Of a DNA stretch of 32,000 nt, positions 4,146-19,969 are shown in pieces. The notes under the pieces were generated by a model. It was not told the origin of the DNA. It saw only the letters and a list, made by a program, of their open reading frames with translations, and made no database searches. The stretch spans positions 1,830,001 through 1,862,000 of the forward strand of contig NC_003450.3 of assembly GCF_000011325.1 (NCBI RefSeq), read 5' to 3'. Source of the DNA: Corynebacterium glutamicum ATCC 13032 (GTDB lineage Bacteria; Actinomycetota; Actinomycetes; Mycobacteriales; Mycobacteriaceae). The position numbers and the translations under genes are program-made. Within the stretch, counting starts at the first letter, position 1, and each line of letters opens with the position of its first letter.

Positions 4146-4928
4146 CTACACAGGCGCAGATGATGCGCGTAAACGGGTTGCCATAGAAAACGGTTGTCCT
4201 GATTTCATGCCAGGGATACGCCCCTCATCGACAGTGACCACCACATCACTAAAAACTGTCATGGCTGCCGTCACAGCATCACCGGTGAGTTCTTTCCCGA
4301 ACACTGTGCCTTTAAGCAACCAACCGTGATGTGCAGTGGAATCCTCACCCGCACGTGCCTGGTGTCGCACATGGCGATCCTCTCGAAGTGCGTGACGACC
4401 ATAACCGTCTTCAAAGCGGCACCCTGCAGCCCACATGACAAAATGCTCACGACCTTTAATGGTGTTGGCCTCCCCGGTGAGACCATCGCCCCATGGCGTG
4501 CCCATAATCGCCACGCTGTCATCCCCAAGACCGGAGACTGCATTAAGTGTGAGTAACTGCCCCCGCGTCTGCTCACGCAGCTCTCGTTGCCACAGATCGT
4601 CGTGCACAGTGTCAAAGGAGTTTCCATAATCAGCAAGAAGATTGAGACTAAGCTTCACAGGCTCAGAAAGCCCCTTCACTGGCACAGTGACTGTGCCCGT
4701 GGACGCAAGACCAGCCTTAGTGCGGTTGTGGCTGTACGTACTGCCTTCAGGCGCACAAATGATCAAAGAGTCAGTGTGAATCTCTACAGCCGTGCTGTGG
4801 CGTCGCCTGACCTTGGTGGTGTGCTCTAAATAGTCATCGCCTGCTGGTACTTCGCACAGATCCCACGGGCCGATACTAATGCCACGTTGAAATTCGTCAG
4901 CGATTCGTTGTGCGGTGGTCACAGTCAT
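4146..4928 (-). CDS. hypothetical protein (260 aa), reverse-oriented cassette gene
   Basis: Long ORF with ATG start. aaaggga lies 13 nt upstream on the minus strand. Codon usage looks like its neighbours, and the alternative-frame ORFs inside it are shorter. I recognise no diagnostic motif. Confidence 0.6.
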   Translation of the reverse strand: MTVTTAQRIADEFQRGISIGPWDLCEVPAGDDYLEHTTKVRRRHSTAVEIHTDSLIICAPEGSTYSHNRTKAGLASTGTVTVPVKGLSEPVKLSLNLLADYGNSFDTVHDDLWQRELREQTRGQLLTLNAVSGLGDDSVAIMGTPWGDGLTGEANTIKGREHFVMWAAGCRFEDGYGRHALREDRHVRHQARAGEDSTAHHGWLLKGTVFGKELTGDAVTAAMTVFSDVVVTVDEGRIPGMKSGQPFSMATRLRASSAPV

Positions 4929-5034
4929 AGTTATTTAAAAGTCCCTTTACTTACATTACTTAGTTATTCATTAATTACTCTAACAAACTTAAAGCTAGGT
5001 AACACCAGCAAGAAAGGTAGTTCTCCTACATTCC

Positions 5035-5085
5035 AGAAAAAGACAAAAAGTAGAGCCACTGGGTCACTACTCCCAATGGCTCTAC
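5035..5085 (-). terminator. minus-strand intrinsic terminator with no ORF upstream of it
   Basis: gtagagcca (5050-5058) pairs with tggctctac (5077-5085), a 9-bp stem with an 18-nt loop. Read on the minus strand, the hairpin is followed immediately by ctttttgtctttttct (plus-strand 5049 down to 5035). Confidence 0.55.
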
Positions 5086-5462
5086 ACTCTTCTCGCTCCG
5101 TTAAAGATTCCTACTGTTCACCATCCCTGCCGGACTATCTGCACACCAGGCAAGTAAAGGAAAACTGATCGCGGTCCTGGACAGGGCAGCAGTAAATGTT
5201 TAACTCACTTTTCAGTATAGACAAACTTTAAAGACAATGCAACTAGTTTATAAATCTATTTCAAAGTCAATTACTTACTCACTAAGAAGAATTATCCATA
5301 TCCTGTCGCACCCATGCCCGAAACCATTTTTATGGGCCATAAAGTGTACGCAAACTTTTTAGATCACGCAGAAACTAAAAATTCCCATAAGTTTCAATTA
5401 ATGAACACAGTAACTACTTGATTATTGAAATAGAACAAATGTGTGCATAACAGCCATATATA

Positions 5463-5508
5463 TGAATTTAATTATGAACGTAACGTTACAAACGTTACGT
5501 ATCGTTAC
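5463..5508. repeat. outer left arm: TGAATTTAATT plus three tandem 9-10-bp iterons
   Basis: tgaatttaatt occupies 5463-5473. It is followed by GTAACGTTAC (5480-5489, a perfect palindrome), AAACGTTAC (5490-5498) and GTATCGTTAC (5499-5508). Confidence 0.8.
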
Positions 5509-5636
5509 ACCTCAAAAACATGCCTTGAGCTGCTGTAAAGGTGAATCTGTAGCGCTACGGTGTAACGATACGAAAAAGCTAAAGTTACACCTAAAAGTAC
5601 GCTTTAACCTGCTTCTATAGTTCTAAAATTGTGGTT

Positions 5637-5656
5637 TGTAACGTTGTAACGATACT
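5637..5656. repeat. inner left arm of an exact 20-nt inverted repeat
   Basis: tGTAACGTTGTAACGATACt is the exact reverse complement of 5878-5897. The midpoint of the pair is 5767. Confidence 0.9.
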
Positions 5657-5877
5657 TTTGCAACTTTAATATAGACAGAAGAGAAAGAGAGAAAACATAT
5701 AAACATGATATAGGACACATAAGTGCATAAAAGCACATATGCGCGTCATGTCATGTCGTTTTACTACCTACGACCACATAAGCGTGCACATGAGCACTGC
5801 CACTCCGCACAGTGGTGATGATAGGTAAATAAGATAACCCTGTATGAGCTACTCCCGCGCGTATAGAAAACATGCAC

Positions 5878-5897
5878 AGTATCGTTACAACGTTACA
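5878..5897. repeat. inner right arm of an exact 20-nt inverted repeat
   Basis: aGTATCGTTACAACGTTACa is the exact reverse complement of 5637-5656. Confidence 0.9.
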
Positions 5898-6025
5898 CTT
5901 TTACATTCATGCAGTTCACAGTGTGTTTTTCATGTAACTTTGATGTAACGCTTATATTATTTTAAGAATTAACTTTAATATAATAAAAGGGTCTTTGACG
6001 TGCATCTTTAGTGCTGTAACACTGT

Positions 6026-6071
6026 GTAACGGAACGTAACGATACGTAACGTTACGCTCGAATTAAATTCA
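6026..6071. repeat. outer right arm: three tandem iterons plus AATTAAATTCA
   Basis: GTAACGGAAC (6026-6035), GTAACGATAC (6036-6045) and GTAACGTTAC (6046-6055) are followed by aattaaattca (6061-6071). That last element is the exact reverse complement of 5463-5473. The midpoint of 5463 and 6071 is 5767, the same as the inner pair. Confidence 0.8.
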
Positions 6072-6551
6072 CGTTTTTACGGTTTTTTAGCGTTCATCTC
6101 ATTATGTGGAATTTCCGTCCCATAAATCGACCCCACCGCAGCACCCTTTAAATTGACTAAACCTATCAGTCGGCGTGCACCTGCAGCCTCTAAAACACTC
6201 CCCTCACTCCATTACGCACACAGTTATGGTTCGTAACGCTCGATCACGTGCAGCAGCACTCCCCTACCCACCACGCGCATATGTGTGCACGTGCAACTGT
6301 GCGCTAAATGCGTCTTAATAAACCGTTGAGTTTCTTTATTACTAAGCTTGTTTAAATTGAAACTTCGTTATATTCTGATTAAAGAAAGTAAGTAATTAAG
6401 TACTTCGGCTCCACGGCCACCCGCACCGTTGTTCACCCACAGTGCACAAGAAAAAGCAACTCACTTCGTGCTTTTTTCACCGACCCCGGCTGTGTGGATG
6501 CCACCCACTTACACCGCACAATCGAAAATAAAAGTAAAGGATGTTCACCTT

Positions 6552-8327
6552 ATGTCTGACACCACAGACAGCCACGACCCAGCAACCTCCCCTACAGTCG
6601 ATTCAGCCGCATCCGGTACTTCTGACCCCAACCAGCAACCCAAGAAGAAATTCACCATCATTAAGCAGGTGAACATGATTGCGCGTACTGCCATTGATGA
6701 CTGCATTAATCGACTAGGCCCAGATGTTGTCACCATGTCCAGCGAAGACATTGCTGATCAAGTGGTCAACTCCATTAACGTTGCTATTGCCAGAGAAAAC
6801 ACACGTGCCCAAGATGCCAATGCTGCGGTGCGTTACACACCTATCTTTAAGCTCGATTTCTCCCATGTCGCTGTCCTTATGCGCAGACTGCATGTGATTA
6901 TCAACATCGCGCCATCGCATAACTCTGATCCTGACAGCGATATGTTGGCTATTTACGACCCCAACCCACGCAGCGAGCATTACGGGATCTATCGCACCTC
7001 AGAGGCTGAAATACGCCGCGTAGCCCGTGAATACTGCCCTGACCTCACCTCAGCGCAGTTTAGAGAACTGCAGATGGCACTCTCAGATGCTGCACCTCGT
7101 AAAGTCCGCCACAAGCAGCGTGACTTGATTCCCGTGAAAAACGGCATCTTTAATTACTCGACTAAACAACTAGAACCGTTTTCTCAAGAGTTTGTCTTTC
7201 TTGCTAAATCTGCAGTGAACTACAACCCAAATGCACAAAACCCTGTCATCACTCATCCCCAGGATGGCTCTGTCTGGGATGTTGAATCATGGATGAACGA
7301 TCTCTCCGATGACCCTGAAGTCGTTAACCTGCTGTGGGAGATTATCGGCGCTATCGTGCGCCCCTATGTGTCCTGGAACAAGTCTGCCTGGTTCTACTCA
7401 GAGGCCGGCAACAACGGTAAAGGCACGCTCGTTGAGCTCATGCGCAACATCTTGGGCGCAGAGGCCTATACCAGTATCCAGCTCTCGGACTTCTCTAAAG
7501 AGTTCCACCTTGAATCACTGACTCGTGCACAAGCAATCCTTGTTGATGAGAACGATGTCGGCGCCTTCTTAGAAAAGTCAGCAAACCTTAAAGCGATTGT
7601 CACCAATGACGTCATCTCCATTAACCGCAAGCACAAAACCATGCTCAGCTATCAGTTTTATGGCTTTATGGTGCAGTGTATTAACGGCTTCCCCAAGGTC
7701 AAAGACCAGTCGGAGTCATTTTTCAGGCGCCAACTCTTTGTGCCGTTTGAGAAAAGCTTCACCGGTGCCGAGCGCAAGTACATCAAAGACGACTACATGT
7801 CGCGCACTGATGTCCTCGAATATGTACTGCACCGCGTACTGCATATGAACTACGACAATCTCTCCACCCCTGCTGCAGCTCTCGCTGTGCTGGATGAATA
7901 CAAAGAGTTTGTCGATCCTGTGCGCGCATTCTGGAATGAATTCAGCGATCAATTTGTCTGGGATCTTCTTCCCCTGCAATTCCTCTACGAGTTTTATCGC
8001 AAGTGGTTTGACCGTGACAGCCCATCCGGGTCTGTGCTCGGCAAACGCAGCTTCATTCAAAAAATCACCACCATCGCCGTTGATAGCGGTCAGTGGGAGT
8101 ATCCGCTGACAGCACAGCGTCCCGGTGGCGATATGGCCGTTCCTGAGCCATTAGTCATTGATTATGACCTCACCGAGTGGCAAAACGCCACTGTACCTAA
8201 AGGTCACGTCAACAAGGGGCTCCCTCTACCACTCAAGGCTAATTATCGAGGACTGCTCCGCAAACCTCTAACAACACCTGCTACTCCCCCTGCAGCGCCG
8301 CTCAACCCCACACCACCCACCCCTTAA
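6552..8327 (+). CDS. D5/P4-family SF3 replicative helicase (primase-associated NTPase) with proline-rich C-terminal tail
   Basis: Walker A GNNGKGT lies at 7407-7427 and Walker B ILVDE downstream. A D5_N-like segment precedes them (IPVKNGIFNYSTKQLEPFSQEFVFLAKSAVNYNP). No primase domain is evident. The track ORF opens at TTG 6429; the in-frame ATG 6552 with aaagg upstream is preferred. Confidence 0.8.
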   Translation: MSDTTDSHDPATSPTVDSAASGTSDPNQQPKKKFTIIKQVNMIARTAIDDCINRLGPDVVTMSSEDIADQVVNSINVAIARENTRAQDANAAVRYTPIFKLDFSHVAVLMRRLHVIINIAPSHNSDPDSDMLAIYDPNPRSEHYGIYRTSEAEIRRVAREYCPDLTSAQFRELQMALSDAAPRKVRHKQRDLIPVKNGIFNYSTKQLEPFSQEFVFLAKSAVNYNPNAQNPVITHPQDGSVWDVESWMNDLSDDPEVVNLLWEIIGAIVRPYVSWNKSAWFYSEAGNNGKGTLVELMRNILGAEAYTSIQLSDFSKEFHLESLTRAQAILVDENDVGAFLEKSANLKAIVTNDVISINRKHKTMLSYQFYGFMVQCINGFPKVKDQSESFFRRQLFVPFEKSFTGAERKYIKDDYMSRTDVLEYVLHRVLHMNYDNLSTPAAALAVLDEYKEFVDPVRAFWNEFSDQFVWDLLPLQFLYEFYRKWFDRDSPSGSVLGKRSFIQKITTIAVDSGQWEYPLTAQRPGGDMAVPEPLVIDYDLTEWQNATVPKGHVNKGLPLPLKANYRGLLRKPLTTPATPPAAPLNPTPPTP

Positions 8328-18508: not shown

Positions 18509-19039
18509 ATGACCACCTCATCACCCCTTAAGTCCAAAAATTCCCTTAACGGCGCGCAGACCACATTTGTCCGCAATTGTGTTGCAGACGGCCCAACCGA
18601 GGTAAAAGCCACCATTGATGCACGTGGCGGTATCGAACAGCTCCGTGACAATGAGATTTCACAGCTCCCCGACAAGCTGTGGTTCAATAGCGCAACCTCC
18701 GCATCCAATGACGAGTTCACCACCGATAACATCCGACTTGGGTTGCTCTACAACATGGCACTGAATAAGGCATCGGCTCATCGCTATGAGCTTGCTGCCC
18801 GCTGGTACGCCATTGTTAGCCCTCAGCCATCGCAAGAAGCTAGCCACAAGCGCATCGCGTCCTGGCACCTTACCCAGCTGCACGCACTGGTGACCCTATC
18901 TCGCACCCTAGGGGTCATCATTCCTGGTGATGAGATCGACGCTCTAGCGCAGTCTATGGAGAATGCTCGTCAAGTTGGCACCGAGAATTGGTCCACTGTC
19001 ACCATGCGCACCTACGTGACCAACCGCAAGGCATCCTAA
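18509..19039 (+). CDS. hypothetical protein (176 aa)
   Basis: ATG with AAGAAAG at 18492-18498 (10-nt spacing). Its stop overlaps the next start (TAATG at 19037-19041). Confidence 0.6.
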   Translation: MTTSSPLKSKNSLNGAQTTFVRNCVADGPTEVKATIDARGGIEQLRDNEISQLPDKLWFNSATSASNDEFTTDNIRLGLLYNMALNKASAHRYELAARWYAIVSPQPSQEASHKRIASWHLTQLHALVTLSRTLGVIIPGDEIDALAQSMENARQVGTENWSTVTMRTYVTNRKAS

Positions 19040-19788
19040 TGACTCGCGATATTTTCCACGAGGCTGCAAAACTCATCGCACACCTGGGGTGGAGGGACGC
19101 TTTTCCAGCACTACAGCGCACTGACCCAGCGCCAACACATGCTGTGCCGATCAGGGCCTTTGATCTCAAGGCGGGCGCCGTCATCACCGATGAAAATCGA
19201 AGCAATGCTTATATCTATGACACCCTTGTCATCACGCAGCCATATAAGCACGAGTTACCTCATCAAAACACCCACCCTTTTGAGTGGGCCCTGGAACAAA
19301 TTGCCACGCTTGATCCGGCGTTCTCGATCAAGCTCGATCGCTCAGTGACCGTCCCTGAAATTGGACTCTACGCCCGCACACTGCATGACCTTAATACTCG
19401 GCATCAAGACTTCTTGGCACAGCGCAACGCCATGTTGCTTGTTGTTGCCCGTCGTGGTGTTGATCCAAAAAATATCGCAGACGTACTTGGTTTAACCACC
19501 AATCAGATACATCGGATTCTCAGTGCTACTCCGGCTGATTCCCCTACTGATTTAGGCGTTAACCCCGCCACAACAATGGGTGATGTAGTGAGGTTTATCA
19601 AGAAACGTCGCACCACTATGCAACTACGCGGCACCGCTGTCCGTGCACTGCTCTATCACGGCCTTACGCCGGCAGTCATCTCCCGACTAAGCGGCATGTC
19701 GCGTGCGGGTGTCATCAACGCAGCCAAGGCATTCCCCACCACCATCAACCACAAGGTCAAGAAAAGAAAGCAGCACTTCCATGTCTAA
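19039..19788 (+). CDS. DNA-binding protein with two helix-turn-helix segments
   Basis: Start chosen at the TAATG overlap (MTRDIFHEAAKL). The two HTH-like segments are PKNIADVLGLTTNQIHRILS and PAVISRLSGMSRAGVINAAK, which look like sigma-70 region-4 or MerR-type HTHs. Confidence 0.55.
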   Translation: MTRDIFHEAAKLIAHLGWRDAFPALQRTDPAPTHAVPIRAFDLKAGAVITDENRSNAYIYDTLVITQPYKHELPHQNTHPFEWALEQIATLDPAFSIKLDRSVTVPEIGLYARTLHDLNTRHQDFLAQRNAMLLVVARRGVDPKNIADVLGLTTNQIHRILSATPADSPTDLGVNPATTMGDVVRFIKKRRTTMQLRGTAVRALLYHGLTPAVISRLSGMSRAGVINAAKAFPTTINHKVKKRKQHFHV

Positions 19789-19969
19789 TCTCGGCACATA
19801 CTATGCAGCACGACGTGCAGTTATTGGGCAATTGCTCAATGAAGGTCTTGATGCTGAGCAGATCGCAACACGATTGCAACTCAGCCCGGATCTCATTAAC
19901 GCAGATTTTGAGGCTCTAGAAAAAGAGAAAGGTGAGGCCCAGAAAAAGTCTCAACAGCCTGGTTTCTGA
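19781..19969 (+). CDS. small HTH protein (62 aa)
   Basis: ATG 19781 overlaps the upstream stop by 8 nt (ATGTCTAA). AAGAAAG lies at 19764-19770 (10-nt spacing). The HTH-like segment is LDAEQIATRLQLSPDLINADF. Confidence 0.55.
   Translation: MSNLGTYYAARRAVIGQLLNEGLDAEQIATRLQLSPDLINADFEALEKEKGEAQKKSQQPGF

Follow-up and report, generated by a model that had tools for sequence, protein, structure and literature searches.

Where does the prophage CGP3 of Corynebacterium glutamicum ATCC 13032 begin its replication, and does the repeat-filled gap upstream of its helicase gene priP hold the answer? In C. glutamicum, an industrial workhorse, CGP3 serves as the model of how prophages are silenced and spontaneously induced. 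Once induced it replicates, beginning while it is still integrated, with amplification of its flanks from approximately cg1619 to cg2311 (PMC6173762), and AlpAC is required for its full copy number (PMC4446434). This 'regional replication' of hundreds of kilobases of flanking chromosome is known, and no origin has been mapped or reported in the published papers that we searched. Here we analysed a stretch of 32,000 nucleotides of this genome (contig NC_003450.3, positions 1,830,001 to 1,862,000; hereafter the window, in whose coordinates positions are given unless stated otherwise). We consider it highly probable, from comparative sequence evidence, that a 609-bp array of short iterons at 5463-6071 is the vegetative replication origin of CGP3, of the type found in the Staphylococcus aureus pathogenicity island SaPI5. 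Four lines of evidence led us to this reading: the homology between PriP and the SaPI5 initiator-helicase PriRep5, a shared spacing layout, the family-wide association of such arrays with helicase genes of this kind, and conservation of the array. That CGP3 replicates upon induction, and that there is no other non-coding DNA beside priP, we also counted in favour of an origin at this position.

The inverted iteron array between cg1957 and priP

Gene coordinates published by Wiechert et al. 2020 (PMC7002338, Table S1) fit exactly when genome positions are taken as window positions plus 1,831,472. They place the region within CGP3, identify the leftward 260-aa gene as cg1957 and the rightward helicase gene as priP (cg1959), and locate the array at 1,836,935-1,837,543 of BX927147. 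Exact protein matches also assign the locus to the 3.3-Mb chromosomes CP115148.1 and CP020658.1, the latter cited as that of C. glutamicum, with a gene for Lsr2 close by, and the proteins bear names from ATCC 13032; a scan of a genome collection yielded distant relatives only. The gap between the two genes (4929-6551, 1623 bp) is the only non-coding DNA that adjoins priP and has a GC content of 37-38%, compared to 50% across the window. A sequence-only reading of this DNA had proposed a candidate origin here, in the form of a quasi-palindrome of about 735 bp with 19 GTAAC/GTTAC cores, and its count proved exact at the positions it implied. The segment 5379-6240 contains these 19 cores at 22 per kb, whereas the window outside it has 0.74 per kb, and 5000 first-order Markov simulations of the segment itself gave a mean of 3.8 cores and a maximum of 13. 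The enrichment over the remaining window is 30-fold, and seventeen of the cores fall within 5480-6055. Similarly, 15 of the 20 copies of GTAACG in the window lie in 5480-6238, and none of 100 shuffled sequences got to 20 copies, which bears out the enrichment that the reading had wanted checked against shuffled DNA. When one mismatch was allowed, GTAACGWTAC occurred at seven sites, every one of them in 5480-6055 (14 strand hits, where 2.0 are expected). No second array was found in the window, in which the runner-up 7-mer cluster has five copies compared to nine here.

The array is organised as two inverted arms. An exact 20-nt inverted repeat (5637-5656/5878-5897) and an exact 11-nt inverted repeat (5463-5473/6061-6071) are both present as had been described, and since the two pairs have the same coordinate sum (11534) they share a centre at 5767 and delimit two arms of 194 bp each, 5463-5656 and 5878-6071. 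The common midpoint proposed for the array thus holds for these two pairs, but not for a further 18-nt inverted repeat (5491-5508/6036-6053), the coordinate sum of which is 11544 and which is therefore offset by one iteron. Ungapped mirror complementarity about 5767 is 36%; this is the top value in the window, yet 35.8% is reached elsewhere. A global palindrome is hence ruled out, and the description of the element as a 735-bp quasi-palindrome was overstated. Alignment of the left arm with the reverse complement of the right arm revealed three conserved blocks with diverged DNA between them, and the symmetry of the element is confined to these blocks. The outermost matches that had been included (5379-5390/6102-6114) have a different centre (sum 11493), are poorly conserved (81% and 69% identity to Corynebacterium suranareeae) and look like chance, and we accordingly set the extent of the element at 5463-6071 rather than 5379-6114. 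Among the smaller features listed by the same reading, the purine tract (5677-5695) and the CACATAAG repeats at 5716 and 5775 are indeed there, but the second repeat is lost in C. suranareeae and we take the pair as chance. The same applies to the phased T tracts, of which there are only two, one of them broken in C. suranareeae.

C. suranareeae has the same module, and comparison of the two species answers the question of conservation in relatives that the sequence-only reading had raised. The left arm is 90.7% and the right arm 94.8% identical, compared to 73.9% for the right part of the spacer (5736-5877) and 69.4% for 6072-6300, and there is not a single insertion or deletion across 5207-6071. 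Sixteen of the 19 cores are kept. The core at 5494 is lost, with the remaining cores of the left outer cluster retained, and the core at 6026 is lost as well. Two substitutions yield better GTAACG cores, since the core at 6016 is improved to GTAACG and the GTAACT of the pair at 5934-5950 likewise reads GTAACG, that is, it moves towards the consensus. Overall, core positions are 93.7% identical, compared to 83.6% at other positions (Fisher p=0.009). This pattern argues that the arms of the array are selectively conserved.

Several further observations concern the same DNA. When 50,697 phage records were searched at the DNA level with the gap and with the replication module, no match came back, and the single viral contig that matched the 18-mer GTAACGTTGTAACGATAC did so inside a coding region, a chance hit. 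A 59-aa open reading frame at 5441-5620 is intact in C. suranareeae, but 10 of its 59 residues differ, no ribosome-binding site is seen and there is no sign of coding constraint. The motif TGTTCACC, which is also the type I iteron of phage P4, is found at 5115, 6430 and 6542 on the forward strand and at 6668 on the reverse strand; three of these copies lie in the cg1957-priP gap, and one stands directly between the priP ribosome-binding site and start codon. With four copies in the window compared to 1.3 expected, a count equalled by three of 100 shuffled sequences, the motif is too weakly enriched to interpret. Finally, short-read assemblies from many samples end within the array, at 5487 (L039), 5676 (L038), 5936 (L009/L010), 6049 (L031-L036) and 6082 (L030). 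The clustered short inverted repeats are the likely cause, and heterogeneity in the cultures could also produce such breaks. The metagenomic contig k141_3774 (ENA ERZ27241518; L038, positions 1-178) matches the window as far as 5676, where the purine tract starts, and beyond the 5676/5677 junction runs on into unrelated, coding-like sequence found neither in the window nor in any locus that we fetched. This contig could represent a rearranged prophage variant or an assembly chimera.

PriP and the layout shared with SaPI5

PriP carries the Pfam domains DUF5906, Pox_D5 (residues 455-516) and D5_N, and passes the TIGR01613 model ('phage/plasmid primase, P4 family') with 191.6 bits, compared to a cut-off of 108.7. 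Its sole solved relative is PriRep5 of SaPI5 (PDB 7OLA/7OM0; phmmer E=1.4e-56). A profile built from 19 members of the PriP family matches residues 295-757 of the 797 residues of PriRep5 with E=1e-144, a match that spans all of the protein but the N-terminal primase domain and extends into the C-terminal domain. The Rep proteins of these islands are self-loading initiator-helicases, the C-terminal winged helix of which recognises iterons of 5-6 nt. Their origins comprise six to twelve iterons adjoining rep, an AT-rich centre and at least two oppositely pointing iterons per side, and PriRep5 bound its own origin in gel-shift assays (PMC9371898). The related helicase Cch2 of the staphylococcal cassette chromosome mec (SCCmec) likewise binds iterons via its C-terminal domain (PMC7581432). 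As judged from the sequence, the CGP3 array agrees with this description in its Rep-helicase neighbour, in iteron number and in having at least two opposed iterons on each side.

The agreement extends to the spacing of the iterons. We fetched the SaPI5 locus (L131, in which PriRep5 is 100% identical) and its relatives, and wrote out the orientation of each iteron (> or <) together with the number of base pairs between cores. SaPI5, with the core GTTGC, reads <10<10<22>45<8<[99 bp, 18% GC]>8>44<22>21>, and CGP3, with the core GTTAC, reads >9>10>58<22>54<8<[238 bp, 41% GC]>8>42<11<71<10<10<10<. The module '<22> ~44 <8< spacer >8> ~44 <' was found again in six further SaPI-like or phage loci, among them L134, L137, L139, L141 and L143, and in four phage or prophage loci reached via PriP (L012, L072, L026 and L017). 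Two of these loci use the GTTACA core of CGP3, namely L143, a SaPI5 relative with 64% PriRep5 identity, and L012, a metagenome-assembled genome from Bacilli with a helicase about 50% identical to PriP. In the latter, TTCGTTACA iterons lie 585 bp upstream of the helicase gene and the doublets, with 9 bp between cores, stand on either side of a spacer of 17% GC. Spacer GC in the relatives ranges from 16 to 32%, but reaches 48% in L072.

Iteron arrays are also a recurrent neighbour of PriP-type genes beyond these loci. We clustered the 100 loci that encode PriP homologues at 85% identity, obtaining 38 clusters, and defined a strong array as a 7-mer repeated at least eight times in 600 bp. Such an array was present in 20 clusters, and in 17 of these it lay within 800 bp of the helicase gene. 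Twelve of the 17 adjacent arrays are upstream (229-787 bp from the start codon; 497 bp in CGP3) and five are directly downstream, so the upstream position is the commoner one in the family. The cores vary by lineage (TGCTACA, GTCACAA, GGTGACA, TGCCACA, TGGGACA, GTACACA and others). In lactococcal bIL310-like satellites (L099-L130), six GTTAC iterons fall in the 300 bp that follow the helicase stop codon, and in some variants of these elements all copies switch jointly from GTAAC/GTTAC to GATAC/GTATC, with mixed forms occurring too. Joint switching of all copies is what would be expected of matched initiator-origin pairs, and the lactococcal variants offer a natural series for the study of initiator-origin specificity. 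We also noted three viral contigs of 130-250 kb with two PriP-type helicase genes each: IMGVR_UViG_3300045988_182539 (L082/L084), IMGVR_UViG_3300008133_000273 (L001/L002) and IMGVR_UViG_3300021431_004083 (L066/L074). In the first of these, each helicase copy has its own upstream array, consisting of 12 copies of GTAACAC and 11 copies of TGGGACA, respectively. Such a contig may come from a single genome with two initiator-origin pairs, or may join two elements.

These comparisons bear on the nature of the iteron unit. The sequence-only reading took the unit of its GTAACG(A/T)TAC iterons for a perfect palindrome, suggestive of a dimeric binder, and named helix-turn-helix (HTH) proteins among those to be tried. 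We found a palindromic 10-mer recognised by a dimer of such a protein unsupported, given that relatives use asymmetric cores (TGCTACA, GTTGCA, GTCACA) in the same layout. It appears more likely that the unit is an asymmetric (T)GTAACG of 5-7 nt bound by the winged-helix domains of PriP. The origin assignment made by the same reading, on the other hand, gains support from the homology, layout, family association and conserved arms taken together.

Downstream of priP, cg1960 encodes a protein with no significant match in Pfam or NCBIfam and no match among PDB sequences, and is probably the partner enzyme of the replication module. Because PriP has no primase domain, priming may reside in cg1960, by analogy with the polymerase-like primases of SCCmec (PMC7581432). 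The parts of the array and its neighbouring genes are listed in Table 1.

Table 1. Parts of the CGP3 iteron array and neighbouring genes (window coordinates).
Feature	Position	Strand	Remarks
cg1957, 260 aa	4146-4928	-	transcribed divergently from the array; in >190 contigs
Outer left boundary block TGAATTTAATT	5463-5473		inverted partner of 6061-6071; invariant in both arms and C. suranareeae; also in a third lineage (L046)
Left outer iteron cluster GTAACGTTAC, AAACGTTAC, GTATCGTTAC	5480-5508		three CGTTAC cores at 9- and 10-bp spacing
Convergent iteron pair, GTAACGATAC at 5562 and GTTACAC at 5584	5562-5590		22 bp apart; '<22>' element of the SaPI5 pattern; identical in C. suranareeae
Inner left doublet TGTAACGTTGTAACGATACT	5637-5656		cores 8 bp apart (5638/5646); left arm of the 20-nt repeat; invariant in C. 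suranareeae; equals the '<8<' doublet by the spacer in SaPI5 and relatives
Central spacer	5657-5877		between oppositely pointing doublets
Candidate melting region A, with purine tract	5657-5735		left third of spacer, 29% GC; 87% identity to C. suranareeae
Spacer right part	5736-5877		48% GC, fast-evolving; 73.9% identity to C. suranareeae
Inner right doublet AGTATCGTTACAACGTTACA	5878-5897		cores 5884/5892; right arm of the 20-nt repeat; invariant in C. suranareeae
Iterons GTAACT and GTAACG	5934-5950		first sits 42 bp from the inner right doublet; '~44' element of the pattern
Candidate melting region B	5951-5990		least stable 40 bp of the window; iteron-flanked; inside CgpS-bound area 5941-6782
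Right outer iteron cluster	6016-6055		four GTAAC cores at exact 10-bp spacing (6016, 6026, 6036, 6046) and an inverted core at 6051
Outer right boundary block AATTAAATTCA	6061-6071		inverted partner of 5463-5473; conserved in C. suranareeae and a third lineage (L031)
priP (cg1959), proposed initiator-helicase	6552-8327	+	PriRep5/P4-family superfamily 3 (SF3) helicase without primase domain; winged-helix region at about residues 440-520; array ends 497 bp upstream
cg1960, 1263-aa polymerase-like protein	8349-12140	+	21 bp after priP; PHROG 1252 'DNA polymerase' (E=1.6e-18, residues 784-953, weak match)

How the array would act, and competing explanations

If the array is the CGP3 origin, a plausible sequence of events can be proposed from its layout. 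Upon induction, PriP would be made from its own promoter, and winged-helix domains in its C-terminal part would bind the (T)GTAACG iterons. The opposed inner doublets would place two PriP hexamers face to face across the spacer, with the outer iterons, at spacings of about 22, 42-54 and 10 bp, stabilising the complex. Easily melted DNA would then open, the candidates being 5657-5735, which adjoins the left doublet, and 5951-5990, within the right arm. The helicases would load themselves without a separate loader, and bidirectional replication would follow, with synthesis by cg1960 and host enzymes. The second candidate, 5951-5990, has a duplex stability of -37.1 kcal/mol, the minimum over the 32 kb, at 17-20% GC, and differs by one substitution from C. 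suranareeae. The whole spacer, in contrast to these sites, has 41% GC compared to 50% for the window and is AT-rich only in its left 79 bp (29% GC).

The extent of amplification in induced cells can be set against the model. By our own interpolation from the table coordinates, the amplified region reaches from about 1.51 to 2.20 Mb with a midpoint at about 1.855 Mb, and the array (1.8369-1.8375 Mb) lies about 18 kb off the midpoint of this ~690-kb span, at the poor resolution that such interpolation allows. At this coarse resolution the amplified span fits bidirectional replication from the array.

Several points weigh against the origin assignment. The published copy-number map is too coarse to place an origin, and cumulative GC skew, which the sequence-only reading had suggested as a check, shows no turn at the array. 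The array is located 497 bp upstream of the helicase gene, whereas that of SaPI5 is directly downstream. The spacer is 2-2.5 times as long as in SaPI-type origins and has only 41% GC, and the melting site is therefore uncertain; the least stable DNA falls in the right arm and is off centre, compared to the AT-rich central region of SaPI-type origins. Among the PriP-homologue clusters, about a third have no obvious array within 1.3 kb, and our attempt to relate the winged-helix segment to the iteron core did not succeed, in that L011, L013, L015 and L016 share a CGP3-like segment without having GTTAC arrays. Lastly, CGP3 is degenerate, and parts of the array could be relics.

The competing explanations have to be considered in the light of the transcriptional and silencing landscape of the gap. 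Published data place areas bound by the xenogeneic silencer CgpS at 4560-5112 and 5941-6782, the priP transcription start at 6356 on the forward strand and start sites in the direction of cg1957 at 4945-5335 (PMC7002338). The published start-site table reaches only 500 bp upstream of each gene, so that 5428-6052 is outside its survey. The array sits between the two CgpS peaks, is overlapped by the right one from 5941 and lies 285-900 bp upstream of the priP start site. We rejected the idea that the array consists of CgpS sites, since the two bound areas flank it or cover just its right third and the CgpS motif is AT-only. The architecture had been described as not explained by any gene; the gap is not wholly without known features, and holds a very strong published start at 5206 (reverse strand), a terminator at 5085-5050 and the priP start. 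Searches of 4800-6700 against Rfam gave no credible family, a tRNA scan found none, and a sigma-70 pattern scan returned no promoter with a pattern untuned to corynebacteria.

The explanation that survives best, although we consider it improbable, is that the array provides operators through which a phage transcription factor (the HTH proteins encoded at 18988-19969, cg1957, or PriP acting on its own promoter), and no origin, would govern the divergent promoters of cg1957 or the small RNA described below and of priP. The divergent intergenic position of the array between starts at 5206-5335 on the reverse strand and 6356 on the forward strand would suit such a role, and start sites within 5428-6052 would have escaped the published survey. 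Initiators of many replicons repress their own genes too. However, iteron clusters come no closer than about 285 bp upstream of the priP start and about 130 bp past the most distal listed cg1957 start (5335), the motif occurs at no other promoter in the window, and cg1957 is without a detectable DNA-binding domain. Moreover, the arrays of five relative clusters lie downstream of the helicase gene, between co-oriented genes with no divergent promoter, and the layout matches that of a bona fide origin, that of SaPI5.

Somewhat less probable again is a reading in which the array no longer takes part in replication, being what is left of an inverted duplication in decay, or else a segment that inverts or forms a cruciform. 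In its favour are the cryptic state of CGP3, the relation of the two arms as inverted copies that have diverged, and the three cores by which the species differ; heterogeneity could be the reason why short-read assemblies often break at 5487, 5936, 6049 and 6082. Against this, conservation is much higher in the arms than in the non-coding DNA beside them, the arm lengths are preserved exactly, and two C. suranareeae substitutions improve iterons. CGP3 still replicates when induced (PMC6173762, PMC4446434), no recombinase gene is adjacent, and breaks in assemblies, to be expected where short inverted repeats cluster, have no diagnostic value. We regard as least credible of all that the array partitions or anchors the excised circle of CGP3 in the manner of a centromere: its short repeats in two clusters recall parC/parS-type sites and CGP3 has the actin-like segregation system AlpAC, but the AlpA repeats (alpS, TTAAnnG), from which the array differs in motif and which we thus rejected as its identity, are published at the alpAC promoter, about 55 kb off (PMC4446434), no par-like gene is adjacent, and the helicase gene is the sole constant neighbour of the arrays in relatives.

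The left part of the gap holds a feature of its own. For the start at 5206 on the reverse strand (genome position 1836678), Cappable-seq gave a relative read score of 290,005, tenfold the second-ranked value of the CGP3 table (28,397) (PMC7002338), and an intrinsic terminator at 5085-5050 is followed by a T run. The segment 5036-5206 is thus probably either an abundant small RNA or a processed leader of cg1957. The 171-nt RNA from 5206 to 5036 has a predicted fold of -62.6 kcal/mol (z=-4.0), and at 97.6% identity in C. suranareeae this segment is the best-conserved stretch of the gap. The fold predicts a 15-nt loop with UCCUUUACUU, which is complementary to the priP ribosome-binding region AAGUAAAGGA (6532-6541). 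We rejected the idea that this 10-nt match masks the priP ribosome-binding site, as the duplex energy is no better than that of shuffled RNA (p=0.11 for priP and 0.70 for cg1957). The RNA was not found in the supplements of the C. glutamicum small-RNA paper that we searched, and it has no Rfam match. As for cg1957 itself, searches of Pfam, PHROGs, NCBIfam and PDB sequences all came back empty, and C. suranareeae has a homologue that falls into the same 90%-identity cluster.

Wider reading and comparison with known origins

A precise candidate position and a named initiator, PriP, make CGP3 replication directly testable and provide an engineering handle, for example for inducible in-situ amplification or for clean inactivation of CGP3 replication. 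The comparison further shows that the SaPI5 layout reaches many uncultured phages and Actinobacteria, which provides a simple rule for origin prediction beside PriRep5-type helicase genes. A broader reading, which we put forward as a speculation with the odds against it, is that a single origin layout is common to the PriRep5/PriP family in Firmicutes and Actinobacteria alike, whether in islands, in satellites or in phage contigs of more than 100 kb, and that CGP3 represents a stretched and regulated form of it. The common layout may consist of a doublet with 8-9 bp between cores, an inverted iteron at about 43 bp and a pair at about 22 bp, in mirror symmetry about a spacer, and would serve as a fixed scaffold for loading two hexamers. 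In CGP3, the two inner cores are separated by a 238-bp spacer that is not AT-rich, the most meltable DNA and the right arm lie under the CgpS peak (5941-6782), and the strongest start of the published CGP3 table, that of the 171-nt structured RNA, is 260 bp from the left end of the array. If true, origin firing would be gated by relief of xenogeneic silencing and possibly also by this RNA.

Known replication systems resemble the CGP3 array to different degrees. Iteron plasmids of the RepA/Rep_3 type (F, R6K, pPS10) have tandem direct iterons of 17-22 bp and usually DnaA boxes, whereas the CGP3 iterons are 5-10 bp long and mostly inverted, and no Rep_3/RepA-like protein is encoded by the flanking genes. 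With phage P4 the array shares the kind of helicase, PriP being a member of the P4-family primase C-terminal/helicase group (TIGR01613). The P4 alpha protein recognises iterons by a winged helix at its C terminus. In contrast to CGP3, however, P4 requires two separate cis elements, ori and crr, with another iteron, and P4 alpha has a primase domain that PriP lacks; in the window there is one array only and no second, crr-like iteron element. SV40 and the papillomaviruses, with the SF3 helicases large T antigen and E1, use a short pentanucleotide-type dyad site to steer two hexamers beside easily melted DNA (by analogy from PMC7581432), but their origin-binding domain is N-terminal and unrelated and their origins are far more compact, so that the likeness is one of analogy only.

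Helicase genes of Sfi21-type phages of Streptococcus thermophilus and of lactococcal bIL310-like satellites are homologues of priP, with 31-35% identity between the proteins. Here a non-coding repeat region adjoins the helicase gene, and bIL310-type elements carry six GTTAC iterons. Origin-like properties are described for the non-coding region of Sfi21 (PMC6356513, PMC13575424). These origins differ from the CGP3 array in measuring only about 100-250 bp and in being downstream of the gene.

The closest counterpart is ori5 of SaPI5. Both systems have a homologous initiator-helicase, short asymmetric iterons and an 8-bp tandem doublet in opposite orientation on each side of a spacer, followed outwards by an inverted iteron after about 44 bp, by two convergent iterons about 22 bp apart and, at the end, by iterons spaced at 10 bp. 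On the other hand, the inner cores are 238 bp apart in CGP3 compared to about 90-110 bp, around a spacer of 41% rather than 18-31% GC. The total span is about 610 bp rather than about 300 bp, a distance of 45 bp in the left arm of SaPI5 is 54 bp in CGP3, and tandem clusters form extra outer arrays at both ends. PriP is without the N-terminal primase domain of PriRep5, and the host is actinobacterial, with a prophage of about 185 kb (cg1890-cg2071) instead of an island of about 15 kb. The SaPI-type class of origins is already known, and the CGP3 case differs from it by a long, modestly AT-rich spacer, the upstream position and the additional terminal arrays.

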